Below, in pieces: positions 2,239-28,138 of a DNA stretch of 64,000 bases. The DNA comes from Halioglobus sp. (GTDB taxonomy: Bacteria > Pseudomonadota > Gammaproteobacteria > Pseudomonadales > Halieaceae). How positions within the stretch are numbered: the stretch's first letter is position 1; every line of letters starts with the position of its first letter. Location of the stretch: positions 37,469 to 101,468 of the forward strand of contig JBDXFZ010000144.1 of NCBI GenBank assembly GCA_039990395.1. The letters are read 5' to 3'. A program made the translations under genes and the position numbers. The notes under the pieces were generated by a model. The model was given only the letters and a program-made list of their open reading frames with translations. It was not told the DNA's origin and made no database searches.

Positions 2239-2256
2239 GGTGAGACGCCGAATAGG

Positions 2257-2742: not shown

Positions 2743-2916
2743 TTGAAGCCCCCTGACCTTGGCTCATTCTGTAAGTGGCTGAAGGGTAACATATTTTTGG
2801 GGGTGGCCTATCCTGGATACATGATTGAATGAGGCAATTTTGGGAAAGCCGCGAGTGCCAAATTCTAGAGCAGACTTCTTCCTGAAATGGGCCACCCAGC
2901 AGGGAAAATGGCCGAC

Positions 2917-3079
2917 AGGCATTCGAATCGAATTGCTGCTGGCTTCGGCCGGCATTCAGGGGCTGCGCAACTCAACCATTTTTCGCTTTGCGAAAAATTG
3001 GGATTCGAACAGTGCTCGCCGAAAACCCTGAATGCCGGCCGATGCCAAAACGCAGCATGATTATTCGATTCGAATGCCT
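2917..3079. repeat. nested imperfect palindrome (~163 nt) in the glyA-nrdR intergenic region
   Basis: Outer arms 2917-2933 aggcattcgaatcgaat and 3063-3079 attcgattcgaatgcct are a perfect 17-bp complement. Inner arms 2945-2961 tcggccggcattcaggg and 3026-3042 are also a perfect 17 bp. tgctgc (2934-2939) pairs with gcagca (3052-3057). Central hairpin 2978-2998 is atttttcgc-ttt-gcgaaaaat. Confidence 0.7.
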
Positions 3080-3126
3080 GGCAGCCCTAATTTGCTGGCA
3101 AACCATTGCGCCACAAGTTCAGCAGA

Positions 3127-6953: not shown

Positions 6954-6995
6954 CGCGATATAGTTACCCCAGACTGAGAGAGCACGAGTTTTACT

Positions 6996-7364
6996 ATGAG
7001 CGAGATTCGCAACGAGCGTCGCAGATTCACACGAGTCAGTATCGATCTTCCCACGGAAGTTCACCAGGGTGGCAGTGTTTGGAAACAACGCCTGATCGAC
7101 CTGTCTTTACTGGGGGCAGCCACCGACCAACCCGACATCTGGGACGCTCAGTACAACGAACCCTTTACCTTAATCATCCACATCAGTGATGACCAACAGC
7201 TGGAACTGCATGCCTATCTACAGCATGTAGAGAGTGGCCGGCTCGGGTTCAGTGTTCAGCATGTTGATCGAGAAAACATCGAGCCGCTACGCGATCTGAT
7301 CGCACAGCACATCGGCGATATAGCGATTCTAGATGAGGAGATGAGCCGGCTAGAGCAAAGTTAG
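6996..7364 (+). CDS. stand-alone PilZ domain protein (c-di-GMP receptor candidate)
   Basis: 122 aa with RRRFTR (RxxxR) and DLSLLG (D/NxSxxG) motifs at the canonical spacing. Confidence 0.7.
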   Translation: MSEIRNERRRFTRVSIDLPTEVHQGGSVWKQRLIDLSLLGAATDQPDIWDAQYNEPFTLIIHISDDQQLELHAYLQHVESGRLGFSVQHVDRENIEPLRDLIAQHIGDIAILDEEMSRLEQS

Positions 7365-7493
7365 CTTTGTTCACCAAGCAGGTTGAATTGACGATAGAAA
7401 TCTGGGGTTGTCACCGAGGCAGAGCCAGCCTGTTGCGAGAAAAATCTGGCTTCGGACCAAATGCCTTAGCCAGCAGTTAGCTAGTGCTAGAGG

Positions 7494-8537
7494 CTATTGC
7501 AAAAAGAAGTAGGCTCCAGCAGCAACCGCCAGCCCTACTACAATCAATGCCACAATTTTTGCCCCTGATCCATTTGAGGCAGTGTTACCTGAATCTCCGC
7601 CAGCTGCCTCAACTGGAGCCGCACCTGCTGTTCCACCCAGCGCGGAATGAAAAACGACTGTTGCCATCCCCAGTGTTATCTCATCGCCATCGGCAAGATA
7701 CGCCGTCAAACGCTTCTCACCATTTACGAATATGCCATTGGCTGAAACAAGATTTACAAGGCGCCAACGGCCGCCTTGATGCACCAACTGAGCGTGACGA
7801 CCTGAAACACTCTCTTCTGTCAGCACAACTTCACATCGTTCCTCGCGGCCTATCTCCCATACATCAGACTCAGCAGTACCACCTGGCTGGAGTTCGAATA
7901 CGGCACCGGCACTCTCACCCTCACTCACAACAATCAGGTGAGGCAAATCAGACGCGCGCCCTACATCAGCAGCGCTAACACCTGGCGCGATATCATCTAA
8001 CGAAAGTACCCGTGTTTCTTCACCGGTACCCGTATCTACCCAACTTCCAGGCAGATCGAAGCTGCCCGATGCTACCGCGGCGGGTTCGCTTTTAGGCTCG
8101 GGCTCAGGGGGTTTTTCGTCTGCCTTTTCTGCCGCTGGCTCACTTGGTGGGGCGGTGGATGGTGCAGGCTCAGGCTCTGGAATATCTACAACCGTGGCGT
8201 CGTCCATTTCTACTACGGTGGCGTCAAGGTCTTCGTCTGAGCCCTGCGTTTCGAGTTTAAAGCTGTGTTTCTCAAAGCTGATCTCATCGCCACCATAGGC
8301 CTGCGTCGGCTTCTCTATACGCAATCCATTAACGCGAGTGCCATTGGAAGAACCCAGATCCTCGATCATTACTTTCTTGGCTTCTACCTTAATCACCGCA
8401 TGATTTCGGGAAACTTTGGCGTCGTCTATGGTAAGCCCGCAGTCAGCCGAACGGCCCACAATGGTCTCTCCCTCTAGCATTACCGCCTCACCTTCTGAAG
8501 GTACCAGCTTGGCAACAAATTCCTGATTTTCGAGCAT
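7494..8537 (-). CDS. dual FHA-domain protein, C-terminally membrane anchored
   Basis: FHA1 is GRSADCGLTIDDAKVSRNHAVI...SSNGTRVNG. FHA2 is GREERCEVVLTEESVSGRHAQL...SANGIFVNG. A Pro/Glu-rich linker joins them, and the C-terminal TM is IVALIVVGLAVAAGAYFFL. Start set at MLENQE (ATG 8535-8537); the track ORF's longer start would overlap the PP2C gene. Confidence 0.8.
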   Translation of the reverse strand: MLENQEFVAKLVPSEGEAVMLEGETIVGRSADCGLTIDDAKVSRNHAVIKVEAKKVMIEDLGSSNGTRVNGLRIEKPTQAYGGDEISFEKHSFKLETQGSDEDLDATVVEMDDATVVDIPEPEPAPSTAPPSEPAAEKADEKPPEPEPKSEPAAVASGSFDLPGSWVDTGTGEETRVLSLDDIAPGVSAADVGRASDLPHLIVVSEGESAGAVFELQPGGTAESDVWEIGREERCEVVLTEESVSGRHAQLVHQGGRWRLVNLVSANGIFVNGEKRLTAYLADGDEITLGMATVVFHSALGGTAGAAPVEAAGGDSGNTASNGSGAKIVALIVVGLAVAAGAYFFLQ

Positions 8538-8548
8538 ATCGATCTCTC

Positions 8549-9574
8549 TTACCGCCCTGTCACAATAAGCCACGCCAGGTAAGCAGCGGCTACTACCGTC
8601 ACCGTGGTCATTCCTATCCAAAATGTTCGTGAACGCGATTTGCGCTTTGCTTCCTTCACCGCGAGTTTGCGCATTGCTTCAACCTGCGCCACCGGTATCA
8701 TCTGCGTAGCGCCCGCACCCTTTGGTGCTACCCGTCGCACTCCCGCCGGTTGCGCTGGCGCACGGTCAAGCTCAGGTAGGCCACTATACTTGCCCGTAGA
8801 AGGATCAAAGCTCCATACCGGCTCCGGTCGCTGTTGCACTGATCCTCGCACGGACTCATCCGCCTCCACCAGAACTACCGTTACGTTGTCACGTCCCCCG
8901 GCATCCAGTGTCGACTGGATCAGGGCCTGGCAACGTTCCGTCAACGTTTCTCCGGAGCGAAGTATGTCGATAATCTGCTGATTTTCCAACACATCGTTAA
9001 GCCCATCGCTACACAGCAGAAGTATCTCACCTGCGTTGATACGACCGGCAATAGCGCCTATATCGAGGTTGTCCTCGCTTTGCAAACCAACAGCCTGAAC
9101 AATCACATTCTTGCGAGGATGGTTACGCGCTTCCTCGATCGTAATCCGACCCAGTTCCAACTGGGCAGCCACAAACGAGTGATCTCTAGTCAATAAATGA
9201 AGCGAACCATCCCACAGGTAGGCGCGGCTGTCGCCCACCCAGTCAATACGATATTCGGCGCCCTGCATACGCATAGCCACCACTGTAGACGCCATGCCGG
9301 GCTTGCCCTTGCCTGCTTCCAGAGCGGCCATCACGTCGTCATTGGCGTTGCGGATGGCCTCTTCCAAACCTAACCCGGCACCAAGATCTCTCTCGATGCT
9401 TTCGCAGGTGATGCCACTGGCAATCTCACCTGCGTGATGACCGCCCACACCATCTGCCACCAATAGCAAACCAATTGATTCATTAATCAGAAATGCATCT
9501 TCGTTATGCTTGCGCCGAGCGACATCGGTTTGTCCGGCACTGCTGATCCCCGGAGCAAGCTGCACAATACTCAT
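8549..9574 (-). CDS. PP2C-family (PPM) Ser/Thr protein phosphatase, C-terminal TM anchor
   Basis: 341 aa with RKHNEDAF, VADGVGGHHAGEIAS, LLCSDGL and GGRDNVTVV motifs. C-terminal TM is TTVTVVAAAYLAWLIV. ATGA overlap with the upstream cytochrome gene. Confidence 0.85.
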   Translation of the reverse strand: MSIVQLAPGISSAGQTDVARRKHNEDAFLINESIGLLLVADGVGGHHAGEIASGITCESIERDLGAGLGLEEAIRNANDDVMAALEAGKGKPGMASTVVAMRMQGAEYRIDWVGDSRAYLWDGSLHLLTRDHSFVAAQLELGRITIEEARNHPRKNVIVQAVGLQSEDNLDIGAIAGRINAGEILLLCSDGLNDVLENQQIIDILRSGETLTERCQALIQSTLDAGGRDNVTVVLVEADESVRGSVQQRPEPVWSFDPSTGKYSGLPELDRAPAQPAGVRRVAPKGAGATQMIPVAQVEAMRKLAVKEAKRKSRSRTFWIGMTTVTVVAAAYLAWLIVTGR

Positions 9575-10875
9575 AAGGAATCCCTAAGTTTTCGCGACAT
9601 CACTGCAAACTGTTTGGGAACAAAGACATTCTCGTCTGTGACAGTGGCAAACAGCTGGTCGAGTTGCTGTTCGTAGCTACCCTGATCATCCAGAGTGATT
9701 GTAATAGTTTCAATGGCCAGAAAAATTTGTTCCGCAGAGGTGAAATGCCTAAAGTCGCCTGCGCCTGCGCGCTCCGCCAGCTGCTGACGTAATAGTTTTA
9801 AATCAGCTGTTTGATACGACCGATTGCCCAACTGCTCAACCAGGGGTTCTAGCACAGCAACAAGAGTTTTAGACTCAGCCACCACTGCACTACGAGACTT
9901 GACTGACTGCACATGTAATGCCACTCGACCCTGTGCAACCTTAGTAGCTGCCGGCGATCCTAGGGCGTTTAACACAGCTTCCAATACCAAAAGAGTTCCG
10001 TCGTTTAACCGGACACTACCCGGCGGTAGCGCTCGACTTCCCCCCTCCGACTCCCAGCGCAGGTCATTCATAGGATGATGGCACGAGTGACATTGATAAA
10101 AGGACAGTTCCGGCATGAGCGTGTCGCCGCCAAACCAATCGGTCTGCAGGAGCTCCAACGACTGGATGCTGGTCAATACCAATCCAGAAAGCCACATGTT
10201 TACCGACGGCGTATATGGCTTACGCTGTGAGTAGTCGGTGTCCACCTCGTAGTGGGCGGGCTGATTAACGGTAAAGGTTTCCAGTTCGAAACTTAACCGG
10301 GGATGGCCTGCGCCCATGATTGCATGCGTTGCAAATTTGTTTCGCGTACCCAGATGACAAGACAAGCACAATCTTGCCCGCGCGGCTGGCTGCTCCGTTG
10401 GATACATGCCAGCCGCTACGTTGTCCGCATGCGACGTCCCCTGCTCGGCATGACTCTGCAACCACTGACCCGAACCACCATGGCAGGCTTCGCAACCCAC
10501 ACCATCAGAGATCTGGAAACGCCTACCTCTACTCTCCACTGCTACATTATCTGCATGGCAATCCAGGCAGATATCCGCCGCATGTGCACTCGGTAAACCC
10601 AGCTTTGCTGCCATGGCCTGCGATTGCTGTGTTTGCAGCGTGCGGTAAGCGCGCGAGTGGAAATCCTCGCGCAACCATATCCGGTATTCATTCAACCAGA
10701 CGGTAGACTCGGGATCAGGACTGACCTTACCGTGACAGACGCTGGTTGCGCACGTCGCAACGCCTTCGTGCACATTCTGCGCTGTTTCAGGCAACAGTTG
10801 GGCGTGCACCTGTACAGCGCAACACACTGCCCCTAGCCACGCTATAAGCGCTAAGGCTTGTTTTCGACAAACCAA
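9571..10875 (-). CDS. periplasmic pentaheme c-type cytochrome (c554/c3-like)
   Basis: Signal peptide present. Heme motifs CATSVCH (CX4CH, as in cytochrome c3), CLDCH, CEACH, CLSCH and CHSCH. TTG start overlaps the upstream gene by 25 nt. Confidence 0.75.
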   Translation of the reverse strand: MVCRKQALALIAWLGAVCCAVQVHAQLLPETAQNVHEGVATCATSVCHGKVSPDPESTVWLNEYRIWLREDFHSRAYRTLQTQQSQAMAAKLGLPSAHAADICLDCHADNVAVESRGRRFQISDGVGCEACHGGSGQWLQSHAEQGTSHADNVAAGMYPTEQPAARARLCLSCHLGTRNKFATHAIMGAGHPRLSFELETFTVNQPAHYEVDTDYSQRKPYTPSVNMWLSGLVLTSIQSLELLQTDWFGGDTLMPELSFYQCHSCHHPMNDLRWESEGGSRALPPGSVRLNDGTLLVLEAVLNALGSPAATKVAQGRVALHVQSVKSRSAVVAESKTLVAVLEPLVEQLGNRSYQTADLKLLRQQLAERAGAGDFRHFTSAEQIFLAIETITITLDDQGSYEQQLDQLFATVTDENVFVPKQFAVMSRKLRDSL

Positions 10876-13800
10876 GGCTTACCCTCCTCATCAAGGAACA
10901 TTTTGCGCATTTCATCCTGGTTCAACGGCCTGGAGCCAAGACGACCGAAGACCGCTATCTGCCCGCCCGTTTCGTCTACGCCGCGATCACGCTCTAGCGG
11001 CCGACTGATTGACAACGCCGGCGACTGCGTCGGATAAACTGCTATCAATTCCGGCTTGGGCGCCGGACTGAAACCGTAAAATTTCGGCTGGCTGTCGGGC
11101 GACGTGAGCTGCACAACCTTCAGGCCAGAGCCGCCATCTGCCACATAAGCAAACAAAGAGGCGTTGGTACTGGCAACAGTGACATCGTAGCTATCACTCA
11201 GTCCATCTTTAAAGCTTTCTACGAGCTTCATCGCTTCAGGATTTTTGATATCAACGATTGTCAGGCCATCCGCGCCGCTAGCGACATAGGCAAACGTACG
11301 TGCCAGATGCAGCCGGCGTGCTTGCCCGAGCGAAATTGTGTTGTCCGGTGTGACAATCGGCTTCGATGGGTCAGTAATATCAACTACTTTCAGACCATCC
11401 GCATCTGTCACAAACAGATACCTGAACTGCTGTGCTAGAGAATGACCGTTACTCAGAGGCAGAACGCTTTCGAGCTTGGGCTCCAAAGGTTTGTCGATAT
11501 TGACTGTAACCAGACCTGCATCAGCAATGATATAGGCGTACATTCCACCAAGAACCATGTGTCGCGCACCTTTAAGCACACCCTGATCATTCCAAGTGAC
11601 CGCACGCGTGAGCTTATTGTTGCGAGGCTCTCCGTCCATGAGAGTATCGATATCAACGAGAATCAGCCCTTCTTCGCTATCGAGAATGTAGGCATAGGTA
11701 TAGAGCGGATGAAACGGCTGCTCTTCGTTAATGTCACGCATCAACTCGCCTTGGTTGCGAGACGGCTGAATCGGCTGAGTAGTCGGCAGCACAACACAGG
11801 TCGCGTTCTTGCTATCGATATGCGTATCGTGGCCCAGCCTGCTGAAGGGGGCGGTGATTATGCGCTGTGATACACCTTTGTTCGCAATGCTGGCCACATC
11901 GTAGACTTGCGTACCTTTCTCACCTTCAGCCACGAACAAATATTCTCCCCGCAACTGCAGGCATTCCGAAACGCCACTGGTATGCGGGTAACCATGCTGT
12001 AGCACGCGATCATTAGTCTGATGCTCGGCAAAATAGTCCGGATACGCATACTTTTGAAGGTAGCTACCAATCACCGCCTGTGGCTCATCCCACTCTGTTA
12101 CTTGTACACCGGTAATATGCTGTTCACCACCTACATACGCTATGTGCCCGAGAAAATTCACGAAGCCCGTACCGTACATCAGAAGCTGCGCCATGATCGC
12201 ATTGTTATCGTTGTTCTTACTTAGGTGACAATCTTCACATTGCTTTGTCTCGGTCTTTCGCACTGTATGTGCAAAATGAGGATTGAATGCCTGAGAGCTA
12301 TAGCCACTTGCTGCGATTGGTGGCTGCTGGATGTAAATCTTCTCTCGATTGGAATTAGTAGAAGAAAGCACAAGAGCAGACGTAGATCGTACGGGTGCAA
12401 TCTTTCCGCCTTTGGCCGTTTCGCGCCGGCCCAGCAAAAACATCTGGTCGCGCGCTACTTGTGGGTTGTACGTAGCGTAGTTACGTGAACTCCCACCTTC
12501 ATAATGGTGTCGCTCTGTTTTTTCGTTCGCCTGAATCGGCAGGTGACAGCCGCCGCAACTCGTTGTCCAAGAGGTATGACAGGTATAGCACTCCATCTCT
12601 TCATCTGAGTGCGCGAGCTCATCCATGCTCACCTCTGCACCCCAAGCTTGTGATGCGGTATCAGTGCTCATGGTTTTTGCGCGCGCCGCTTCTGAGTTGT
12701 AGCCCGTGTGTTCTGGGTCAACGCTATCCTTCACGAGGCTGACCTCCCACTCCAGCTCAGGATCCAGCACCGATCGTTGAATCAGCTTTTCTCCTATCCA
12801 CTCAAAACGCCGACGTCCATCTGGATTTCTAATTGCCCCTAAATCTGTGCCGCCTTCCAATGCGGCCGGGCCTGAGGTAAAGAGGTTCGGGTAGGCAGAA
12901 ACAGAGCCATGGCAATCCTTGCAATCTATTTCTACAGCGGCGGCGACTTCGCCATAAATGTGTCCATTGCCATGATTGTCTTGTGAGTAGTGGCAATCGA
13001 CACAGTGCATGCCGGCATCAAGGTGAATTGAAGACATATGAACAGCCTTCTGAAATTTATCTGGATCTTCATCGCTCACCTGCGCACCTTCAGCATCCAA
13101 CAGGTTGCCATCACGATCGCGCTTGAACACCGCGCGGAAGTTCCAGCCGTGACCATGGTAATCGGCGAACTGGGTATCTTTTAGCTCTGGATTCATCTCA
13201 GACACCGCTTTGAGAAACTCTAGGTCCGCCCACTTTCCGCGCGGCGCAGCACCCTCAGGGTTTCTCTCTAACACCTTGCGGCGCTCTTCGTCTGTTGGGT
13301 ACACCTGTTTTTCTGGCCACATAGACGGCGCGTCAGACTCGTAGTCCCACATCGTGTAACCCAAGTAACTGTTCACGAACATATTGGGCTGGTGCATATG
13401 GCAAACCATACACTGGCTGGTTGGAATTGCCCGTGTGAACTTGTGTTGCAGCGGATGTCCCGGCTCCTCTTTGGGAATCATTGGATCTACCGACTGGCTT
13501 TCCCCAATATGGCCAAACTGCGCATAGGCACCTGAGTGGCGTGGATCACGATCGTTCGCATAAACGACATGGCAGGCAGCACATCCGGAGTTACGGTAGT
13601 CACCGGGCTGATCGTTAGTACCCATAAACCAGGTATGCGGGTCATTCAATCGAGTCTTGGTAATATTAATCAGCGGCACTGAAATGCGGGCTCCCGTTCC
13701 GGGGCCACGATTACTCTGACGAAAATCTGGTCTGCCGGGTTCTTCAAGACGTTGTAACTGTCCCAGCGCATTGGGCAATCCCGTTTCTGGAAACAGGTTA

Positions 13801-14603
13801 CTGATATTACGTCCACCACGCTCAAACACCCTGAAAATATCGCCGGGTTTCACCGTCTCCCACGCGGGCAAGGGATAGAGCTCTGGTAAAATTCCTGCCA
13901 GAGTCATTTCTTCGGTAGGTATTACTGGTCCCTTTACCGCCGCACCCACGCCTTCGCGCGTATAGGACTCGCCTAAAATATAGCGTTTGAAAGGTAGTAT
14001 TCCGTTGTTGTACGAGGCTCCTCCCCACAACATGGCTGAGGTCGCCATCAAACTGCGCTCGGCAGCTTCAATGATGGGCAGATGGCAGGCCCCGCAGGCT
14101 TCTCTGGCGATGCGATAGTCCGAGGGGTTAACAAACCGCACGAACTCAGGACTTTCCCTGTTGAGCAAAGTGTAGGTTTGTTCCGGATTGGCGCTTGATG
14201 GATAGTGCCAGTCATCAGGATAACTTGGGAGAACGTGCGCTGACTCCATCGCCGCCAGGTAAGCTGGATTCGACAAACCCTCGGTCACACCCTGAGGCGC
14301 TCGCACCGTGGCGTTACCCCCGTGGCAGTCGGTACAACCCAATTTAACTGCCGGATTCATGTGCATTGTTTTTTCATCAGTACTGGTGTGACAGGTTTCG
14401 CACCCTTCCGACTTAGCCGCCATCTGTTCCTGTGTCTGACTGACCGGCGCGTTCGGCGCAGTCACGTATTGCCTCGCTACCGCCTCGCCGCCCGAAGAGC
14501 CGAGAGTAACGCTCACAGGCAATGCGACGCCGACCAGCATCAGGCTCGCTAGCCAGATTTTCATCACCGCTGAAGTTGTTGGTTTTCCCTGTGCCAAGAT
14601 CAT
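10851..14603 (-). CDS. 1250-aa decaheme c-type cytochrome fused to a C-terminal LVIVD-repeat beta-propeller
   Basis: Signal peptide present. Ten CXXCH motifs: CETCH, CTDCH, CGACH, CAACH, CMVCH, CVDCH, CKDCH, CYTCH, CGGCH, CEDCH. The C-terminal third carries GLILVDID, GLVTVNID, GLKVVDIT, GLTIVDIK and GLKVVQLT repeats. Confidence 0.8.
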   Translation of the reverse strand: MILAQGKPTTSAVMKIWLASLMLVGVALPVSVTLGSSGGEAVARQYVTAPNAPVSQTQEQMAAKSEGCETCHTSTDEKTMHMNPAVKLGCTDCHGGNATVRAPQGVTEGLSNPAYLAAMESAHVLPSYPDDWHYPSSANPEQTYTLLNRESPEFVRFVNPSDYRIAREACGACHLPIIEAAERSLMATSAMLWGGASYNNGILPFKRYILGESYTREGVGAAVKGPVIPTEEMTLAGILPELYPLPAWETVKPGDIFRVFERGGRNISNLFPETGLPNALGQLQRLEEPGRPDFRQSNRGPGTGARISVPLINITKTRLNDPHTWFMGTNDQPGDYRNSGCAACHVVYANDRDPRHSGAYAQFGHIGESQSVDPMIPKEEPGHPLQHKFTRAIPTSQCMVCHMHQPNMFVNSYLGYTMWDYESDAPSMWPEKQVYPTDEERRKVLERNPEGAAPRGKWADLEFLKAVSEMNPELKDTQFADYHGHGWNFRAVFKRDRDGNLLDAEGAQVSDEDPDKFQKAVHMSSIHLDAGMHCVDCHYSQDNHGNGHIYGEVAAAVEIDCKDCHGSVSAYPNLFTSGPAALEGGTDLGAIRNPDGRRRFEWIGEKLIQRSVLDPELEWEVSLVKDSVDPEHTGYNSEAARAKTMSTDTASQAWGAEVSMDELAHSDEEMECYTCHTSWTTSCGGCHLPIQANEKTERHHYEGGSSRNYATYNPQVARDQMFLLGRRETAKGGKIAPVRSTSALVLSSTNSNREKIYIQQPPIAASGYSSQAFNPHFAHTVRKTETKQCEDCHLSKNNDNNAIMAQLLMYGTGFVNFLGHIAYVGGEQHITGVQVTEWDEPQAVIGSYLQKYAYPDYFAEHQTNDRVLQHGYPHTSGVSECLQLRGEYLFVAEGEKGTQVYDVASIANKGVSQRIITAPFSRLGHDTHIDSKNATCVVLPTTQPIQPSRNQGELMRDINEEQPFHPLYTYAYILDSEEGLILVDIDTLMDGEPRNNKLTRAVTWNDQGVLKGARHMVLGGMYAYIIADAGLVTVNIDKPLEPKLESVLPLSNGHSLAQQFRYLFVTDADGLKVVDITDPSKPIVTPDNTISLGQARRLHLARTFAYVASGADGLTIVDIKNPEAMKLVESFKDGLSDSYDVTVASTNASLFAYVADGGSGLKVVQLTSPDSQPKFYGFSPAPKPELIAVYPTQSPALSISRPLERDRGVDETGGQIAVFGRLGSRPLNQDEMRKMFLDEEGKPWFVENKP

Positions 14604-14612
14604 TGTCGCCCC

Positions 14613-16496: not shown

Positions 16497-16498
16497 CG

Positions 16499-18472
16499 CT
16501 ATTTACCTCCACACACGTTCTGCTGATCACTATCGATATAGGGCGTCTGCGGACACTGAATATATCTCAGTCTTTCTCCCATGGGCGCTAGCCTATCGGC
16601 ACGTATTTCGGGAGGTGCGTTATTAATGCTGTTTCCGAGCTGCTGGCCGGCCTCATCCAGTCCCAGGAAAGCAATCATGTCATCCTGATCGATACCATCG
16701 CCAGAAACACCGATGCCGCCCACCAACTGATTACCTCGGTAGATAGGCACACTACCTGGAAAAATCTGAATACCATTTGCGATTCTGGGCGCTGCGGCAT
16801 CGGGACAATTTGACTGGACGTCCTGATCAGTTGCACCTGCAGCAAACAACACGTGGGTAAAGATGCTGTTAATCGTCAGATCAAGCTGTAACCCGGTCGA
16901 AAAAACACTCCATTCATCGTTTGCGAAGGGCTTACTGAACGGACCACTGGGATTCCCCCTAATGCCATCGGGGTAGAATGGCCGCGACAGATTGCCACCC
17001 GCTCTGTCAGAAAAAGCCGTACCGTCTGTCAGTGCATTCGGGCCCACAAATGCCTGCACTTGATCAACATAGGTGGGAATAAACACTTCGGCTTTGGGAG
17101 ACAGATCTGGATTTAAGTAAACCGCGGGGGTTGTGATTGCCCGCAAGAACGCGGCCGCGTCGCGTGAGGAAAAAAGCGCAGCTGTACGCGCTTTCTGCAG
17201 CGAAACATCGGCACCAAAAACCGGGGCATCAGCCGAACGGACAACTCCCAAAATTACACCCTGACTATCAACTACGGAGATAGTCACTCTGGCGGGCGTA
17301 CCAATCGGTCGGCGTATTTGCGCCCGGCTGCGGGCCGCGACTACCAGCGCGCTTTCAAGCAGCGTGGCTACCTCGCTGGCCGACAACGGAGCCACGGGAA
17401 GCGTGCCGCCATCGGAGCCGCCTCTGGGCGGGAAGCGATTGTTGTTGTCTTCGTCTACGAATACGAACGATTCTATACTTGCCAATGCACCTGCCCTGAT
17501 ACCGGATGCCGGTGTGCCAAATGCGGTGCCTGCAATAATGCGTCCGCCACCATAACCTTGAACATCAACAAGATTGCCACGGTCTACCAACGAATCGTAA
17601 GCAGGTGCTTGCTCCGGAGACACTGGCAAATTGCCAAACTCAACATCCGTAAAGCGAAGAGTTTTTCCCTCAACGGTAATTCGGTCGGCACGCCTGTCAC
17701 GAGGCGCTGCAAAATCGTAGGTCGCAGCCAAGGCTATTTGCTCATCTATATCACGATCGTCATTGAGAATATTCTTATCGATTGTGTAGCGACCATCGGC
17801 AATGACGCCTACACCACCGACCGGTGTGCCAGATTTATAAAGCGGAAAACCACCTGGATCTGCTGACAAACCCAGCGGGGAACGCTGAGGTCCTACGTTA
17901 CTGCCCGCCGAAGCGCCGGACAGCACAAAATCAGAGCACGCGAGCTGACTAAACTGCACCCCAAACAACGGGCCGGCAGGTTGGTTCTCTTCGCCTGGGT
18001 TGAAGTGCTCCTGAACAATTTGATTAGCGGTACGGCTGGAGAACGCATTGCCTTCGCTAGATAAGTAGGCGCCGGTTACCGCCTTGGTGATTGCAGCAAG
18101 CGCTCCCGCATTGGTGCCGGCTGGTAGCACAACTCCTTCAAGACCGGTGCTGATCGTAGTGGGAAAAGTCGTGCCTATCTCAACTGCGGCTCCTTGGACA
18201 GCCATCCTGTGAATAGCCAATACGTTGCCTACGCGATCTACCACGGCGATCGTCGCCTCAACACCCAACGCCTCTGCTTGGGCTATTCCCTGCGCCAGAA
18301 CCTGCTTTACATCAGCTATCGTAAGCGATGTTGATTGCGTAGCACACTGACCCACACACGGTGTCGAACTATCATCTGTCGCGGGTGACGCCCCTGCGCT
18401 ACTGCCACCGCTGCCACCCCCCCCACACGCGGTGAGTAACAACAAGCCGGCCGCACATCCAAGTAACCTCAT
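16499..18472 (-). CDS. lipoprotein with two GlcG/HbpS-like (DUF336) heme-binding-type domains
   Basis: Lipobox LLLTAC followed by a Gly/Ser linker. Domain 1 is LTIADVKQVLAQGIAQAEALGVEATIAVVDRVGNVLA...GGVGVIADG. Domain 2 is VTISVVDSQGVILGVV...GGIGVSGDGIDQDDMIA. Confidence 0.65.
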   Translation of the reverse strand: MRLLGCAAGLLLLTACGGGGSGGSSAGASPATDDSSTPCVGQCATQSTSLTIADVKQVLAQGIAQAEALGVEATIAVVDRVGNVLAIHRMAVQGAAVEIGTTFPTTISTGLEGVVLPAGTNAGALAAITKAVTGAYLSSEGNAFSSRTANQIVQEHFNPGEENQPAGPLFGVQFSQLACSDFVLSGASAGSNVGPQRSPLGLSADPGGFPLYKSGTPVGGVGVIADGRYTIDKNILNDDRDIDEQIALAATYDFAAPRDRRADRITVEGKTLRFTDVEFGNLPVSPEQAPAYDSLVDRGNLVDVQGYGGGRIIAGTAFGTPASGIRAGALASIESFVFVDEDNNNRFPPRGGSDGGTLPVAPLSASEVATLLESALVVAARSRAQIRRPIGTPARVTISVVDSQGVILGVVRSADAPVFGADVSLQKARTAALFSSRDAAAFLRAITTPAVYLNPDLSPKAEVFIPTYVDQVQAFVGPNALTDGTAFSDRAGGNLSRPFYPDGIRGNPSGPFSKPFANDEWSVFSTGLQLDLTINSIFTHVLFAAGATDQDVQSNCPDAAAPRIANGIQIFPGSVPIYRGNQLVGGIGVSGDGIDQDDMIAFLGLDEAGQQLGNSINNAPPEIRADRLAPMGERLRYIQCPQTPYIDSDQQNVCGGK

Positions 18473-20166
18473 TGTTCGAGTTCCCCCCTCGCTAATATTG
18501 AGCGAGTTCCATCAGATTGATGAAACGCATGGCAGCCCACGCAGTCCACTGCACTGAATCCCTTATCCTGAGAATGGCAGGTAAGACAGTTGTCCTGTCC
18601 GGGGATGAGAACATCACTAGCCTTCTCCGAAACGGAGGCCTCGTGGCAGGTTTCGCAGACCTCGTCTTCGTCTCCGGCAAGACTCAAATGACTCACGTGA
18701 TCAAAGCGGCTCTTGGGATACCAGTCGTCTATAATTTTTACTGGCTGAACGAACCAGCGATCACTTATGTCGGCAAGCCCCGTATCCATCACTTCATGAC
18801 AGGTGATACATCCTGTCTCTGCAAACTGATACTCAGCTTCTTTAAGTGCTTCGGCGCGACCACAGTCCAGCCCCGAACCCTGACATTCAGCCAGCCCTTC
18901 ACGTTTCCCTGGAACTCGCCTTGGCTTGGTTGCTGCACGCTGCTGCCTTAACACCGGATCGGTAAACTCTCTAATAAAATGCGCTTCCATCGCGACAATC
19001 GCTTCACGCAAGTTACCGTGTGGCAGCTCAATGTCTGGCTCAAAAACATCAAAATTGAGCGTGTGGCATGAACGGCAGTGCTGATCCATAGTAATCGGTT
19101 CAAAGTGTTCGCCATCGTCTTTCAGGGTATGGCAAGAGTCGCACTGAAGTGCATCCCCACTCTGTGCATCCTGTACCTTGTCGATATCCAGATGCACTGT
19201 GTGCGTGAACTTCAAATTTGATGCTTCTGCAATTTCACCTTCGCCCCGCCTTACGCGTTCAGTTGCCCAACCATGCGCTCCGCCGGGCCCCTGCGCAGTA
19301 AGCAACGACACGCGAAACTCCGGATGCGCAGCCTGCGTAAACGCTGAAACGCTGCCTGGTAGTGCAGCCATAGAAGTAACCCAAGTATCAGGGTCGGCGT
19401 GGCAATCTACGCACAAGCCATTATCCCGATTCACTATCTGAGGTGGCTCGTTGTGTTCGCGGTGACAACTACCACACCTTGCTTCCGCGAACACCTCAGT
19501 CTCGTGTAGCGAAACATCAACATGTTCACGCAGGTTTCGGTGACAATCCAGACACGTATCATCTTTTACCATTTTGAAAGGCTCAACGTGACACGCCTGA
19601 CAATCTTCGCTGATACCGGCGGTCTGATGCGCAGCTGCCAGCGGGCCTGAAGACCAGACTCCATCGTCAGGAAGGGGCGTCTGACGCAGCATAGAGGCAA
19701 GCTGGGGTGACAGCATGCCTCCAAGCGGTATCAGCAAAAACAGAGCCATCACGACCAGCAGTAGAATCCAGCTCAGGCGCCGAACGTTCCATATTCTGCT
19801 CTGCAACTCCATCCCATCAAGGAGAAAGGACGCTGGGGAGCTTGAGAGCGGCGTCTGCTCCAGCGCAAAATCAAATCCAACGGGGGCCGCCACCACCTCG
19901 AATCGAAAACCGCCAAATTCAAAATTGTCGCCTGCGGCAAGAGCTGCCTTGCTCGTTAATTTCTGATTGACGGTGAGCTGCGCTCGCTTTGACGTTATCT
20001 GCCAGTTATCGCCAGACGATCGCCAAATCTGAACACTACCCTTAGCGCCAACAATTTGAACCAGCGCGTTCTCGTCTCCGCCAAGAGTAAGGCTGTCTGC
20101 CTGAAACTCTGTTTCGGCAGCCTCGGCACTTTCACGACCCGTCTTCTTTCTGATAAGAAAATACAT
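18469..20166 (-). CDS. inner-membrane-anchored decaheme cytochrome c3-family protein with a ~120-aa cytoplasmic N-terminal domain
   Basis: One TM (LSWILLLVVMALFLLIPLGGML), then ten CXXCH motifs: CQACH, CLDCH, CGSCH, CVDCH, CDSCH, CRSCH, CITCH, CETCH, CLTCH, CVGCH. ATGA overlap with the next gene. Confidence 0.8.
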   Translation of the reverse strand: MYFLIRKKTGRESAEAAETEFQADSLTLGGDENALVQIVGAKGSVQIWRSSGDNWQITSKRAQLTVNQKLTSKAALAAGDNFEFGGFRFEVVAAPVGFDFALEQTPLSSSPASFLLDGMELQSRIWNVRRLSWILLLVVMALFLLIPLGGMLSPQLASMLRQTPLPDDGVWSSGPLAAAHQTAGISEDCQACHVEPFKMVKDDTCLDCHRNLREHVDVSLHETEVFAEARCGSCHREHNEPPQIVNRDNGLCVDCHADPDTWVTSMAALPGSVSAFTQAAHPEFRVSLLTAQGPGGAHGWATERVRRGEGEIAEASNLKFTHTVHLDIDKVQDAQSGDALQCDSCHTLKDDGEHFEPITMDQHCRSCHTLNFDVFEPDIELPHGNLREAIVAMEAHFIREFTDPVLRQQRAATKPRRVPGKREGLAECQGSGLDCGRAEALKEAEYQFAETGCITCHEVMDTGLADISDRWFVQPVKIIDDWYPKSRFDHVSHLSLAGDEDEVCETCHEASVSEKASDVLIPGQDNCLTCHSQDKGFSAVDCVGCHAFHQSDGTRSILARGELEQ

Positions 20167-20170
20167 AGCG

Positions 20171-21049
20171 CTACCAGTAGAGGAAAACGGAGATGATGTG
20201 AACCGTTAAAGCACCCAGCAGCGCTACGGTTAACGGAATATGTAACGCCAGCCATACTTTGACCAATCCACGAAGACGCGTGTCTCGCCTAAGTAGGTGG
20301 AGTACAAACTGTCGTCGGCCAAACAGGGCAAGAAGTTCATTCAGAACTTCGGCATCGGCCGCCTTTCTGGCGTCAGGGATACGCTTGGTCAGAACATCGA
20401 TAACAGCCGACTGCTCCGTGTTGGCGATCGGGCGACCCCCATCTGTTATCTGTACCATCGATTTATCGGTTGCGCGTAGCTGCTGCCATACGCCGCCACC
20501 CAGGCGCGTTAGCTCCAGCGCACTCACAACCATCAACTGTATGTCTGCATCCGTCCGGCGCACAACTTTACGGATTTCTTCATCCAGGTCTACAAGCTCT
20601 GCCAGCCACTGCTCGTTGTTTCTACCGGAACTGTTTTCGGCGATTCGCGTCGGCAAATGCATATACACATAGAGTCCGTAGACGCCAGATGCAATCACCA
20701 AACACATGAGCACGTAGGCTAATGTATGCACATTCCAGCCAAACTGAGCGGCGCAGTGCAGTGTCGCAATGATCAATAAGGCGATACCCAAATAGACGTG
20801 CGCCGACGTCCAACCCTGCACGGTGCCTATTGCGGAGCGGTACTTCCGTTTTCGAATACCTAGCAGGCTCAACCAGATAATCAGGCCAGCACCAACGGTT
20901 CCCAGCACATAGCCCTGCCAGGTACCTCCATTCGGTGGCTGACCTGGCTGAAAGGACTGAGAGACGTAGAGTGCTATACACACAACTGCAGCGAAGATTG
21001 ACCACTTCAAGTAACGTTGCTTTTGCCAACCTAAAAGGCTCTCTCGCAT
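20171..21049 (-). CDS. polytopic inner-membrane protein with conserved-looking intramembrane His (b-type heme candidate)
   Basis: 292 aa, about five TM helices. His residues lie in TM3 (SAHVYLG..TLHC), TM4 (NVHT) and TM5 (ALHIPL..TVHII). Only 2 nt separate it from the FAD/FeS protein gene and 4 nt from the decaheme gene. Confidence 0.6.
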   Translation of the reverse strand: MRESLLGWQKQRYLKWSIFAAVVCIALYVSQSFQPGQPPNGGTWQGYVLGTVGAGLIIWLSLLGIRKRKYRSAIGTVQGWTSAHVYLGIALLIIATLHCAAQFGWNVHTLAYVLMCLVIASGVYGLYVYMHLPTRIAENSSGRNNEQWLAELVDLDEEIRKVVRRTDADIQLMVVSALELTRLGGGVWQQLRATDKSMVQITDGGRPIANTEQSAVIDVLTKRIPDARKAADAEVLNELLALFGRRQFVLHLLRRDTRLRGLVKVWLALHIPLTVALLGALTVHIISVFLYW

Positions 21050-21051
21050 AG

Positions 21052-23532
21052 CTAGCGTGCCTCTACAAGTTCTACAAACTGCTCAGGCCCTACTCTAGTG
21101 GCAGCACCAGTAGGACAGGCGCGCACACAAGCGGGGCCACCCGCCTGCCCCATGCAGGCATCGCACTTAACGGCCTTTTTGACAGCATCGGCATCAGCTG
21201 GCTTCATGTTATCTGGCTCTCCAGGGCCAGAGCCTGCACCAAACATTAGCCACGATAGCAAGCCAGGTTTTGGTGGCGCCGGGTAACTAAGTTTAATTGC
21301 ATCATAGGGACAATTCGTCTCGCAGTTACCACAGCCTATACAGGTATCAGCAATGAATACCTGACCATCTGCTGCTCGGCGAATGGCGTCTGGCGGACAG
21401 TCTTTCATGCAATGCGGTAACTCGCAGTGCCTGCATGAAACCGGCACATGAAGATTGGCCATCGACGCTCCAGACTTTCTGTCTAGCCGTGATATGCCAC
21501 CATGAGTTTCCGCGCAGGCTTTTTCACAATTATCGCAACCTACACAAAGCGTTTCGTCGATAACCAAAGCATTAGTGGCCTCGCCCAACCCTTCTGCCAC
21601 GAGAAAGCCAACTGCCTTGGCCGACTCTGGCTGCGAGGCCATCACGTTGGATTTCTGAAGCAGCGTGCTCAATCTATCTTGAAGCACTTCTACGTAATCG
21701 GGCTGGCTGTTTACCAGCGCAAGAAACTCTGCCTTATGAATTTCCAAGGTCTCGGTACGTACTGCCGCAGTGGCCGTATCGCGACGCATCGGTGCGCCCA
21801 TTAGCGCCATTTGCCCTGCAAGCTCACCCGAATGCAGTTGAGCCAGCACCAGGTCTGCGCTACCTCGCGACAATACGATTGTGCCGCTGCGAATCAATTG
21901 CAGCGAATCGCCCTCTTCGCCCTCGCGAAAAACCGTTTCGCCAGCATTGTATTGACGGGCATCCGCCTTATCGGCAATCTCACCCAGCGCATCAATACTG
22001 AGGTTTGGCCTGAACGCCGACTGCAGCGCACGAATCTTGAATATGCGGTCAATTCCGGATCTGACGTCCTCATTAGAGTTCATCAGCTTAACCATAATCC
22101 GGCGAGGCGTTTCTATTAGGATTGCGTCTTCACTCACTACTGCATCCCCCTGTCTGGGGCGACCCGAGATCAAGCTCATCTCTCCAAAAAACTGCCCAGG
22201 CACGATGGTATGCCAGGGACCGTCTTTTTCGAGCTGCAGTTTCACTTCTCCTTCTACCAGCGTAAAGAAGCCGGTAGAAAACTCCCCGTGGCGATAAAGC
22301 GGTTCGCCAGCGGGTACAAATGCAGTGGAGCGCTCAGTAGGCGCAGGCATGCTGGCCAGTTGCTCCTTTGGCACACTTACCATAATCCGGCTCTCAATAA
22401 TCAACTCCCTGAAAGCCAGTGGATTCATGCGCCTGAACATCGGCACACGCTGCTGATATAGCGCGAGAACCTCTTCAGCGTCCATCACATAAGGCAGGCC
22501 CGAGAACTGATCCTGAAGCAATGGGTAGTCGGCAGGCTTGGTGTCCTTGCCGTGGATAAACTCCACTACGTCGTAGCCCTGATTCATCGCTTGCTTTATC
22601 AGCGGGTAACCACCGAGAGCGCCAATGATATACAAACCCGATACATTACTCTGATAGTGCCGATCTACATCCGGGGTTGCATCTGGGTTCTTACTGGTGA
22701 TTTCAATACCACAGGATTCCACGAACCGACGCGGTGGAACGGTCCCTAAGCGCGCGATAATTCTGTTGCATTCAATGCGTTCTTCACCAGAAGCGGTATT
22801 AAGTACGATCGCTCCCTTGCCATCGGTTTCAGCAGGTAGCTCGAGCGAGGAAACCGAGCTTTCATAGCGACAACTAAACGGATTGGATTTATCGTTGATA
22901 GCTGCCAACACATTATTCAGATTGCCGTCTTTCGCCCTGCTGAATTCGTTGCGCCGGTTGACAATGACGACCTTGTTTTGCTCCGAAAGCGCAATTGCGT
23001 TTTCAATCGCTGCATCACCCGCACCGATAACTACGATGGTTTCGTCTGTATAGTCTGCTGGATCATCGAGCGTATAAAGTACGAAGTCAGACTCACCATC
23101 TCCTGGCACACCAAGCGTTCTTGGGTTGCCTTGCGTTCCAATAGACAGAACAACGTGCTCGGCACGAATACTCTCGCCTGTTTGCAAAGCAAGTTCAAAG
23201 CTACCGCGCTCGCCCTGGATGGACACCACCTCGCTGTTATAGCGAATATTGATTCCACCCTCGATGCTATCAGACCACTTGCCCAGTATTTCTTCGCGCT
23301 TGCCCGCGTCAAAGGGAACCGGTGAGCGCAGCGCAAGAAAGCCAGGCTCATCCATTACATGCTTGCCTTTCTGGTATTTCTGAATGGTTTTAGCAAAAAC
23401 AGAAAAACCTTCTAGAAGCACATAAGAAGGAGTTTCCCTACCCTCTTCCCGGTCATACTCTGCAGCACGACCGGCGGCACTCAAGCCTGCAGGGCCCGCC
23501 CCTATAATTACAATGTGGTAATTGTCTGCCAA
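21052..23532 (-). CDS. fusion protein: FAD/NAD(P)H pyridine-nucleotide-disulfide-type oxidoreductase + 2 cyclic-nucleotide-binding domains + 4x[4Fe-4S] ferredoxin domain
   Basis: 826 aa. Rossmann motifs IVIIGAGPAGLSAA and VVIGAGDAAIENA. cNMP-like segments FFGEMSLISGRPRQGDAV and LAGQMALMGAPMRRDTATA. Cys clusters CVGCDNCEKAC, CRHCELPHCMKDCP, CIGCGNCETNCP, CDAC...CVRACP. Apparent TTG start preceded by AGGGG. Confidence 0.8.
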   Translation of the reverse strand: MADNYHIVIIGAGPAGLSAAGRAAEYDREEGRETPSYVLLEGFSVFAKTIQKYQKGKHVMDEPGFLALRSPVPFDAGKREEILGKWSDSIEGGINIRYNSEVVSIQGERGSFELALQTGESIRAEHVVLSIGTQGNPRTLGVPGDGESDFVLYTLDDPADYTDETIVVIGAGDAAIENAIALSEQNKVVIVNRRNEFSRAKDGNLNNVLAAINDKSNPFSCRYESSVSSLELPAETDGKGAIVLNTASGEERIECNRIIARLGTVPPRRFVESCGIEITSKNPDATPDVDRHYQSNVSGLYIIGALGGYPLIKQAMNQGYDVVEFIHGKDTKPADYPLLQDQFSGLPYVMDAEEVLALYQQRVPMFRRMNPLAFRELIIESRIMVSVPKEQLASMPAPTERSTAFVPAGEPLYRHGEFSTGFFTLVEGEVKLQLEKDGPWHTIVPGQFFGEMSLISGRPRQGDAVVSEDAILIETPRRIMVKLMNSNEDVRSGIDRIFKIRALQSAFRPNLSIDALGEIADKADARQYNAGETVFREGEEGDSLQLIRSGTIVLSRGSADLVLAQLHSGELAGQMALMGAPMRRDTATAAVRTETLEIHKAEFLALVNSQPDYVEVLQDRLSTLLQKSNVMASQPESAKAVGFLVAEGLGEATNALVIDETLCVGCDNCEKACAETHGGISRLDRKSGASMANLHVPVSCRHCELPHCMKDCPPDAIRRAADGQVFIADTCIGCGNCETNCPYDAIKLSYPAPPKPGLLSWLMFGAGSGPGEPDNMKPADADAVKKAVKCDACMGQAGGPACVRACPTGAATRVGPEQFVELVEAR

Positions 23533-23547
23533 CGTCGAAACCCCTAG

Positions 23548-28138
<4,591 letters not shown>

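Follow-up and report, generated by a model that had tools for sequence, protein, structure and literature searches.

The window analysed here is a 64,000-nt stretch of Halioglobus sp. (Halieaceae) DNA from contig JBDXFZ010000144.1, in which nine consecutive minus-strand genes, called g1 to g9 in the order of transcription, occupy positions 7494-23532 and encode multihaem cytochromes together with other redox, envelope and signalling proteins (Table 1). An earlier account made from the letters alone (the sequence-only reading) had described them as a relay carrying electrons across the whole cell envelope, with signalling parts built in. Its layout of the locus was recovered in full: all nine open reading frames are present, and the successive junctions measure +2, +4, -4, +2, +9, -25, -4 and +11 nt with g9 starting at 8537, which is Met29 of the longest g9 reading frame. 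The count of 25 c-type haem attachment motifs was also reproduced (10 CXXCH in g3, 10 CXXCH in g6, and 4 CXXCH plus 1 CX4CH in g7), and these numbers are conserved in 51/54, 77/80 and 59/59 homologues, respectively. Pfam and NCBIfam agree with every domain call of the sequence-only reading, which had overlooked the N-terminal cytoplasmic FHA domain of g3; the C-terminal transmembrane (TM) anchors of g8 and g9 are a further addition to its description.

The g6 protein is 99% identical to one from a Halioglobus metagenome-assembled genome. Relatives of g6 were found in at least 598 loci in a scan of one genome per species, with hosts among the Gamma-, Beta- and Alphaproteobacteria and the Acidobacteriota. 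The best 80 of these relatives are 63-98% identical over about 1250 residues, and their loci were searched with all nine proteins by tblastn; in 38 of them g6 has flanks of 9 kb or more on the upstream side and 5.5 kb or more on the downstream side. Within these 38 full-flank loci g5 is present in 38, g1, g2 and g3 in 37 each, g4 in 36, g7 in 31 (sometimes on the opposite strand), g8 in 11 and g9 in 9. The same neighbours thus stand in the same order beside g6 across four classes or phyla, indicating that the cluster is more than a chance neighbourhood, and the claim of the sequence-only reading that it forms a genuine functional unit is borne out by this conservation. The conserved unit is g1-g6, usually with g7, and consists of an inner-membrane module (g1, g2, g3) and an outer module (g4 to g7). 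The PP2C and dual-FHA genes, g8 and g9, are an add-on of the Halieaceae and some other gammaproteobacterial lineages. The pair had been placed inside the operon by the sequence-only reading, but it lies outside the core and occurs in about a quarter of the full loci.

The order g1-g7 is the commonest among the loci, while g1 is relocated behind g7 in many Betaproteobacteria and others; across loci the order is either kept or rearranged as blocks. On pMSHV of Sphingobium herbicidovorans, for instance, the genes form two blocks, cytochrome-g4-g5-g6 and g1-g2-g3, and their annotation is generic throughout. A tblastn survey of plasmids with g6 and g3 retrieved the same cluster type only, on sphingomonad replicons (12 of Sphingobium, and Sphingopyxis in addition for g6). 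Even the locus of a distant g1 (34% identity) keeps the LVIVD cytochrome, the barrel, the c554-like cytochrome, the membrane protein and the FHA-decahaem protein, without g4. Four alphaproteobacterial loci (L034, L039, L061 and L078) carry an extra gene for a secreted protein of about 170 residues between g3 and g4 (at about 5600-6280), and no g7 lies within reach in them.

Table 1. Genes of the cluster and two neighbouring genes, with positions in the 64,000-nt window.
Gene	Position	Strand	Length (aa)	Description
g1	21052..23532	-	826	Cytoplasmic entry module; thioredoxin reductase (TrxR)-type FAD/NAD(P)H oxidoreductase + tandem cNMP-binding + HycB-like ferredoxin
g2	20171..21049	-	292	Inner-membrane 5-TM protein; predicted di-haem b
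g3	18469..20166	-	565	Cytoplasmic FHA(-like) domain, one TM helix, periplasmic decahaem
g4	16499..18472	-	657	Predicted outer-membrane lipoprotein; tandem GlcG/HbpS-like (DUF336) domains
g5	14613..16496	-	627	Predicted outer-membrane beta-barrel
g6	10851..14603	-	1250	Secreted decahaem cytochrome, C-terminal LVIVD beta-propeller
g7	9571..10875	-	434	Periplasmic pentahaem; N-terminal half c554-like, C-terminal half helical
g8	8549..9574	-		PP2C-type Ser/Thr phosphatase, C-terminal TM anchor; lineage-specific accessory gene
g9	7494..8537	-		Two FHA domains, Pro/Glu-rich linker, C-terminal TM anchor; lineage-specific accessory gene
gdhA	23548..24891	-		NADP-specific glutamate dehydrogenase directly upstream of g1; outside conserved core
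Ser/Thr protein kinase	30694..32148	-	484	One TM segment; candidate cognate kinase, 7 kb upstream of g1

The protein at the cytoplasmic end of the cluster, g1, combines a flavin adenine dinucleotide (FAD) and nicotinamide dinucleotide (NAD(P)H) oxidoreductase with cyclic nucleoside monophosphate (cNMP) binding and iron-sulfur parts in one chain. It matches Pfam Pyr_redox_2 (4e-26; also Pyr_redox_3), cNMP_binding in two stretches (1e-31) and Fer4 families, and its relatives in the PDB are TrxR, FNR and YpdA for the N-terminal part, the regulatory subunit of protein kinase A for the middle, and the four-cluster ferredoxins HycB, NrfC and PsrB for the C-terminal part. Neither a signal peptide nor a TM segment is predicted. 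Among 50 homologues the four Cys4 motifs, both GxGxxG dinucleotide motifs and the stretch N192-R193-x-x-E-F-x-R-A-K (N-R-[RK]-x-E-F-x-R-A-K in the family) are conserved, the last of which we take to resemble the NADPH 2'-phosphate site of thioredoxin reductase. The family consensus also holds two canonical cNMP phosphate-binding cassettes, whose Glu and Arg are conserved in the same 50 homologues.

The membrane protein g2, with five predicted TM segments, shows W80xxxH84x13H98, S121-G122-x-x-G125 and W266xxxH270x13H284 as invariant motifs in 15 aligned homologues; across 53 sequences they are at least 93% conserved, and the two HX13H motifs fall in predicted TM3 and TM5. Pfam Ni_hydr_CYTB (cytochrome b561) is matched weakly by each of the 15 homologues (best 8.8e-7, below the gathering score) and Ferric_reduct (PF01794) by 1 of them (E 0.26), and the g2 profile has no relative in the PDB by sequence. 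From its paired histidines, g2 is predicted to bind two b-type haems and to carry electrons across the inner membrane.

The decahaem protein g3 has one TM helix (residues 134-152) followed by periplasmic modules of c7/c3 type (Pfam Cytochrome_C7, c3 and Paired_CXXCH), and the best solved relative of its profile is the Geobacter dodecahaem GSU1996 (3ov0, 1e-20). Its N-terminus (about residues 1-100, window about 19870-20166) matches Pfam FHA in 10/15 homologues and Yop-YscD_cpl in 11/15, and the profile also matches the FHA proteins GarA, OdhI and Rv1827. The FHA domain in the window is without the canonical GR, SxxH and NG residues.

A trio of cNMP-FeS protein, WX3HX13H membrane protein and multihaem cytochrome recurs alone on unrelated metagenome contigs, and it is therefore a self-standing device. 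The g1 search likewise retrieved split cNMP-FeS proteins of about 475 residues that are 33-35% identical to g1. The simplest reading, by the logic of Fre-MsrQ and the NADPH oxidases, is that the trio would export electrons from a cytoplasmic donor to the periplasm. Domains and motifs agree here with the sequence-only reading, in which electrons from a cytoplasmic NAD(P)H-type entry module enter a transmembrane haem protein and go on to multihaem cytochromes of the periplasm. On motifs and domain families, the cytoplasm-to-periplasm half of the relay is well founded.

Stand-alone modules were seen at L082 (5945-13515), L083, L084, L087 and L088, each with a cNMP-FeS protein, a 5-TM protein that bears the WX3HX13H motif twice and a cytochrome of five to seven haems, which in L082-L084 is fused to the membrane protein. 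Just upstream of the module in L082 lies a gene for a 1107-aa adenylate/guanylate cyclase, which fits cNMP control.

The direction of flow that we infer for this module could also be reversed. On the model of He et al. for porin-cytochrome complexes (PCC) of types 3 and 4, the present system would oxidise a donor in the periplasm or outside the cell, such as Fe(II), Mn(II) or reduced sulfur, and the electrons would run inward, via g2, to the quinone pool or to g1. The PCC4 clusters on which that model draws have been found in iron-oxidising Zetaproteobacteria and Hyphomicrobium (PMC5566968). Moreover, proteins of the g2 type resemble quinone-reactive di-haem cytochromes b, and hosts of the present cluster include sulfur- and methane-oxidising lineages. 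The g7 relative cytochrome c554, in addition, works in an oxidative pathway. However, 37/38 full loci have conserved a TrxR-type NAD(P)H flavoprotein, which contains four Fe-S clusters and is either fused to the membrane module or lies next to it. The reduction of NAD(P)+ by Fe(II) or Mn(II) runs strongly uphill, the cluster contains no subunit for energy coupling, and most hosts are heterotrophs that are not known as metal oxidisers. Electron uptake is therefore considered improbable.

In the outer module, g4 carries the lipobox LLLTAC with Gly next to it, and a lipobox-like motif occurs in 46/60 homologues. It matches Pfam HbpS-like in three stretches (1.4e-21), and its PDB relatives are the GlcG-like protein 2a2l, EfgA, a PduO-associated protein and HbpS. 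No His is conserved in the alignment of its homologues, and a role as a classical haem carrier was ruled out for this reason.

The signal peptide of g5 ends in ASA-Q, and the protein matches no Pfam family at all, hence not MtrB_PioB. Its AlphaFold2 model is an 18-stranded barrel of medium confidence, with a mean predicted local distance difference test score (pLDDT) of 58 and values of 60-85 in the barrel strands. Foldseek places AlgE (3rbh) first, with 4e-14 and a target TM-score of 0.63 for this model of pLDDT 58, followed by MOMP, OccK/OprD, chitoporin and general porins; MtrB is not among the top 50. Two g5 homologues are named 'alginate export' in UniRef. A charged extension of about 115 residues is present at the N-terminus, together with a 70-residue insert, and many Arg and Asp of g5 are conserved.

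The largest protein, g6, starts with a hydrophobic segment of signal type that appears to be a plain signal peptide, without a lipobox. It matches Pfam LVIVD (2.6e-20) and gives no Cytochrom_C552 (NrfA) match in Pfam, and the only named family it touches is NCBIfam ExtM, in short stretches and at 75.7 bits against a cut-off of 800 (2e-21). Its profile has no relative in the PDB by sequence. In the AlphaFold2 model, which covers residues 46-1245 and was built with 39 homologues that are all at least 70% identical, the propeller reaches pLDDT 85-95 and the haem domain stays below 50; Foldseek returns generic beta-propellers only (AztD, LRP6, WD40, BtuG), and thus no functional lead. The soluble pentahaem g7, with a signal peptide ending in VHA-Q, matches Pfam Cytochrome_C554 (2.7e-11), and its profile matches cytochrome c554 of N. 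europaea (1bvb, 3.5e-5).

Conservation differs strongly between the members. Across the 30 loci with a complete g1-g7 set, conservation is highest in g6 (mean pairwise identity 0.64, minimum 0.59), followed by g4 (0.54), g1 and g5 (0.53 each), g2 (0.44), g7 (0.40) and g3 (0.32). Within g6 the haem domain is more conserved than the propeller, including long haem-free stretches (residues 245-340, for instance, are invariant).

Electrons from cytoplasmic NAD(P)H most probably cross the inner membrane and reach g6 in the envelope; how far outward they travel is the point at which the readings divide. In the trans-envelope conduit proposed by the sequence-only reading, NAD(P)H electrons would reach a surface-located g6 through the g5 barrel, which would hold g7 or part of g3 or g6, and would reduce acceptors that are insoluble or extracellular, such as Fe(III) or Mn(IV) oxides, humics or electrodes. 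The porin gene directly adjoins the multihaem cytochrome genes with their 25 haems in all, g4 as an outer-membrane lipoprotein could be surface-exposed, and the proteins in which LVIVD repeats were originally described are located at the cell surface (PMC2447325). A conduit is also the reading that authors of surveys have given to the PCC4/ptd clusters (PMC5566968; 10.1101/2023.11.21.568154) and to the 'group 1 PCC' of 2026 (PMC13264449). However, the barrel models as AlgE/OprD-like with 18 strands, in contrast to the 26-28 of MtrB and PioB, g3 and g7 score 24.3 and 20 bits against the MtrA/DmsE family (NCBIfam TIGR03508), far under its cut-off of 192.2, and g6 lacks a lipid anchor. Surface cytochromes of the Mtr type are the least conserved components of such systems, whereas g6 is the most conserved one here. 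NAD(P)H spent outside the quinone pool would moreover conserve no energy, which is odd for a respiratory pathway, and the hosts are mainly aerobes. Of the relay proposed earlier, the inner half thus agrees with motifs and domains, but the outer-membrane step does not fit the size of the barrel or the missing lipobox, and the stepwise outward location that had been read from gene order does not place g6 outside the cell. A complete conduit seems possible but rather unlikely.

We favour over such a wire to the surface, at a likelihood close to but short of even, an NAD(P)H-driven periplasmic reductase: g6 would receive its electrons from g3 and g7, and g5 with g4 would provide a channel dedicated to it. 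The solute-channel size of the barrel, the unanchored g6 and its enzyme-like constraint all point to a periplasmic terminal reductase, and the contrast in identity between g6 (0.64) and the wire-like g3 (0.32) is more in keeping with an enzyme than with a terminal reductase at the surface. The donor, NAD(P)H and probably NADPH, would reduce the FAD of g1, and electrons would pass along its four [4Fe-4S] clusters to the two b-haems of g2, where they would cross the inner membrane. From there the membrane-anchored decahaem wire g3 and the c554-like pentahaem g7 may lead them to g6, where the path would end. The 18-strand g5 and the lipoprotein g4 would form the outer-membrane access route for the g6 substrate, possibly an anion, so that g5 would not be a sheath for a haem wire. 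The conserved Arg- and Asp-rich barrel and the weak ExtM link give the only hint at the nature of this substrate, which may be an oxyanion. As the path would bypass the quinone pool, it would serve for reduction without conserving energy (in detoxification, repair or assimilation), and such a non-respiratory role fits the occurrence of the cluster in mostly aerobic heterotrophs.

Several points weigh against the periplasmic reductase. The likeness of g5 to AlgE is at the level of the fold, as Pfam Alginate_exp is matched by 1/14 homologues (6.6e-4) and the PDB gives no match by sequence, and the barrel model itself is of medium confidence. The haem domain of g6 is not confidently modelled, and so an active site or an open-coordination haem is not seen in it; its conserved His and Met would suffice for ten six-coordinate haems, which would suit a protein that only carries electrons. 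A type II system could conceivably secrete g6 to the surface. The superfamily of g2 is often quinone-reactive, so that the quinone pool instead of g1 could be the donor, and extracellular electron transfer is classically recognised by just such a porin beside multihaem cytochromes. The periplasmic reductase does not explain what g4 does, and the support for every member comes from sequence and models. Gene content, conservation, motifs, domain families and the size class of the barrel are observed, whereas the direction of electron flow, the donor, the location and enzyme role of g6 and its substrate are inferred, in part from one medium-confidence model.

The signalling parts suggest that the flow of electrons is controlled, as the sequence-only reading had anticipated; the cNMP domains of g1, the FHA domain of g3, the phosphatase g8 and the FHA protein g9 were all confirmed. 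In the proposed reductase, control would be exerted by cNMP binding to the tandem domains between the flavin and the Fe-S parts of g1 and by recognition of phospho-Thr by the FHA domain of g3; in the lineage of the window, g9, g8 and a membrane Ser/Thr kinase may act instead. The phosphatase g8 matches Pfam PP2C/PP2C_2 and, just under the cut-off of 230 bits, NCBIfam Stp1/IreP (198.5 bits), and has its TM segment at 320-338. In g9 Pfam FHA is matched in two stretches (2e-37), both domains retain GR, SxxH and NG, and the TM segment lies at 328-346. No kinase gene lies within the nine-gene cluster. The protein encoded at 30694-32148, a Hanks-type kinase, matches Pfam Pkinase (8e-38) and is 39-43% identical to the g9-adjacent kinases of Parahaliea maris (L003), of a further Halieaceae-like contig (L004) and of two Spectribacter loci (L024, L025). 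A near-identical strain (L001) has a different kinase right after g9, with 30% identity to this one.

The signalling parts follow a pattern across the loci. The Arg of the g3 FHA domain is kept in 38/50 homologues, 33 of which have no PP2C or FHA neighbour, and is replaced by S, G or C in the other 12/50, 11 of which have g8 and/or g9. Similarly, in g1 (window about 21770-22200) the second cassette has Gln in place of Glu in 6/10 loci with PP2C, and the first has xG in place of [ST]A in 7/10, whereas loci without PP2C mostly keep canonical cassettes; the g1 of the window is of the altered kind. As the lineages are related to each other, these counts do not represent independent events. Together with the canonical FHA domains of g9 and the related kinases, the counts suggest that control has been rewired, from cNMP and the built-in FHA domain of g3 to a circuit of kinase, PP2C and dual-FHA protein.

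This density of signalling domains is unusual, and together with the sensor-like relatives of g4 it raises an alternative, in which the cluster would be a device against envelope redox stress. It would export reducing power to the periplasm in the manner of NADPH oxidase (NOX) or MsrQ, either against peroxide or hypochlorite damage or for making superoxide as a reactive oxygen species, or it would sense the redox state of the envelope through the HbpS-like, cNMP, FHA and PP2C parts. The logic of g1 and g2 parallels Fre-MsrQ and the NADPH oxidases, HbpS and EfgA are stress sensors, and the hosts are aerobic. However, a sensor would hardly need so costly an outfit as a dedicated barrel and thirty-five redox centres (1 FAD, 4 Fe-S, 2 haem b, 25 haem c and others). 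Among the 80 loci the cluster has neither a conserved transcription factor nor a conserved histidine kinase, g4 lacks a conserved His for haem binding, and no peroxidase-type family was matched in Pfam or NCBIfam. A stress device is regarded as quite unlikely.

The upstream border of the unit is not marked by spacing. The stop codon of gdhA, identified by NCBIfam PRK09414 (751 bits, cut-off 536), lies 15 nt before the start of g1, the gap contains nothing of note but a Shine-Dalgarno-like GGGG, and two more minus-strand genes follow upstream of gdhA with spacings of 19 and 63 nt; tight spacing alone therefore sets no 5' edge. Because the 15-nt gap leaves no room for a promoter, gdhA is possibly co-transcribed with g1 in this genome, and it may be a source of NADPH for g1. 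In 9/80 loci, from several families, a gdh gene is found no more than 10 kb from the cluster, in varied orientations. These loci (including L011, L012, L019, L024, L025, L053 and L070) are seemingly more than expected by chance for a single-copy gene. Adjoining gdhA upstream is a gene for a 1075-aa autotransporter with thrombospondin type 3 repeats (24911-28138, minus strand), preceded by one for a 516-aa caspase-domain/Sel1-repeat protein (28202-29752, minus strand), and neither is conserved beside the cluster at other loci. Both gdhA and the autotransporter gene were rejected as core members, being closely spaced here but not conserved neighbours elsewhere. A consensus scan of 6800-25200 gave 6 promoter-like sites against 14.2 in shuffled sequence and 16 terminator-like sites against 16.9 expected, and is uninformative on the limits of the operon.

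At the other end, two plus-strand genes converge on g9, one for a small PilZ-domain protein (6996-7364), a possible receptor of cyclic di-GMP, and one for an ABC-F ATPase (5289-6953). DNA colinearity of the related strain L001 with the window ends at 7438, beside the end of g9. Genes for riboflavin synthase, RibD and serine hydroxymethyltransferase (358-2238 and 3127-4392, both minus strand) lie further downstream and are probably unrelated housekeeping genes, though they are flavin suppliers. In five Burkholderiales loci (L047, L062, L074, L076 and L080, at about 300-3300), ccmA-, ccmB- and ccmI-like genes stand immediately upstream of the cluster, in keeping with the large supply of haem c that it requires.

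At least about 600 species representatives in four major lineages possess such a cluster, and no member has been studied. Abundant organisms are among the hosts, for instance marine Halieaceae and Woeseiaceae, soil Steroidobacteraceae, Vicinamibacteria and Sphingobium, and freshwater Burkholderiales and Methylococcales. If the proposed path is true, cytoplasmic NAD(P)H would be spent directly in the periplasm or beyond, independently of the quinone pool, and the direct allosteric control of an electron-transfer chain by cNMP and by phospho-protein FHA recognition would be unusual. The use of 'porin plus multihaem cytochrome' as a metagenomic marker of extracellular electron transfer is also affected; since the g5 barrel looks like a solute channel, such clusters are perhaps wrongly counted as metal-reducing or metal-oxidising conduits, and counts of metal conduits may mislead. 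Cultured hosts make the cluster testable, among them Sphingobium herbicidovorans, Parahaliea maris, Kineobactrum salinum, Limnobacter alexandrii and Oceanicoccus sagamiensis. In its widest form our proposal, which we put forward with considerable doubt, would be a new class of periplasmic reductase of aerobes, in which a cNMP- and phospho-Thr-gated NADPH exporter bypassing the respiratory chain feeds a decahaem-propeller enzyme served by an AlgE-like channel, with rewired control in the present lineage.

Among the known systems, MtrCAB, PioAB and MtoAB share with the cluster a barrel gene adjoining decahaem genes and the idea of a haem chain through the envelope. They differ in the barrel, as MtrB itself has 26 strands compared with the 18 of the g5 model, and in the periplasmic cytochrome, as neither g3 nor g7 reaches the MtrA/DmsE cut-off and g3 is TM-anchored with c7/c3-type modules. 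A lipoprotein surface cytochrome is also lacking here, and the donor there is a quinol dehydrogenase (e.g. CymA) in contrast to the NAD(P)H flavoprotein of the present cluster. None of the nine proteins matches the NapC/NirT families or an NrfD-type quinol subunit, and no such gene is conserved in the 80 loci.

The inner-membrane module comes nearer to Fre-MsrQ (YedZ), the NADPH oxidases and the ferric-reductase domain (FRD) proteins. In these, too, electrons from an NAD(P)H flavoprotein of the cytoplasm enter a membrane protein with two b-haems, held by two His pairs on two helices, and emerge on the periplasmic side; g2 has the FRD-type spacing, with His 13 residues apart on two TM helices. 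However, g2 is not a member of Ferric_reduct and has 5 TM helices instead of 6, four Fe-S clusters and cNMP domains are interposed here, and the acceptor is a multihaem c chain and not a molybdoenzyme or O2. CbcL, with a di-haem b fused to a multihaem c domain, resembles g2 plus g3 and the fused forms of L082-L084, but is thought to oxidise quinol, whereas the donor here would be the NAD(P)H flavoprotein.

For the outer module, AlgE and OprD/OccK are 18-strand barrels and the best structural matches of the g5 model; AlgE differs in lacking the charged N-terminal extension and the insert, and no polysaccharide synthesis genes lie near g5. The Geobacter cluster ExtHIJKL-MNOPQS (PMC5877670) recalls the present one in the weak ExtM match of g6 and in a porin-like protein, ExtI, that is paired with periplasmic cytochromes and linked to the reduction of selenite and tellurite oxyanions. 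The ExtM score is nevertheless far below its cut-off, and neither a rhodanese lipoprotein nor a bc-type complex is found here. Literature searches on LVIVD, on Halieaceae with multihaem cytochromes and on follow-ups of ptd returned no characterisation and no LVIVD cytochrome of the g6 kind. Two candidates from these fields were set aside: the LVIVD protein of Tenderiales is unrelated, haem-free and a proposed attachment protein, and the Woeseiaceae decahaems (PMC6850669) cluster with Tenderia and Leptothrix types instead.

The closest systems are known from bioinformatics only, namely the PCC4 clusters (He et al. 2017, PMC5566968) and the ptdABCDEFG operon (Elbon et al., bioRxiv 10.1101/2023.11.21.568154), which, judged by their descriptions, seem to represent a single cluster type. 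The inner-membrane proteins of PCC3 and PCC4 carry two WX3HX13H motifs and SGxxG, and were compared by He et al. with the di-haem ferric-reductase domain (PMC5566968). This exact 5-TM signature is present in g2. Further likenesses are the porin beside multihaem cytochromes, the cNMP-binding 4Fe-4S protein, the FAD/NAD(P) oxidoreductase, the decahaem, and hosts among marine and freshwater Proteobacteria and others, and both types have been read as possible porin-cytochrome complexes. On the other hand, the FAD, cNMP and Fe-S parts are separate there (PtdC, PtdE) and form one 826-aa polypeptide here; the porin-adjacent protein there is a pentahaem of the NrfA COG with a beta-sandwich, compared with the 1250-aa LVIVD decahaem here, and the haem set is 10/5/4 there and 10/10/5 here. 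The tandem HbpS-like lipoprotein g4 is extra, and the decahaem g3 is TM-anchored and bears an FHA domain. The comparison, and with it the separation from ptd, is one of published descriptions. The contexts of the split cNMP-FeS proteins were considered as ptd clusters and rejected, being minimal modules of cNMP-FeS protein, inner-membrane protein and cytochrome, and the cluster look-up of these proteins gave no accession of Table S7 of the preprint (10.1101/2023.11.21.568154).

A still closer counterpart is the 'group 1' PCC reported from metagenome-assembled genomes (MAGs) of karst ghost-rock and groundwater (PMC13264449, 2026), where a large decahaem gene stands beside a porin of about 20 strands, a ferredoxin-NADP+ reductase gene is nearby in 7/11 cases, and the PCC-bearing MAGs are mostly Gammaproteobacteria and Acidobacteriota. 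These features match g6, g5, g1 and the host taxa of the present cluster, although the cytochrome gene is 4-5 kb there and 3.75 kb here. The account is two sentences long and leaves the type unnamed, and g2, g3, g4, g7 and the cNMP, FHA and PP2C parts are not mentioned in it; by description, 'group 1' is almost certainly the present cluster type. The claim of the sequence-only reading that the cluster matches no named system thus stands in so far as no named, characterised system fits, but was too strong, as PCC4/ptd share the inner-membrane module and the 2026 survey lists the type. The cluster is real, has been seen in surveys that already noticed its general architecture, and is a variant of a bioinformatically known kind.

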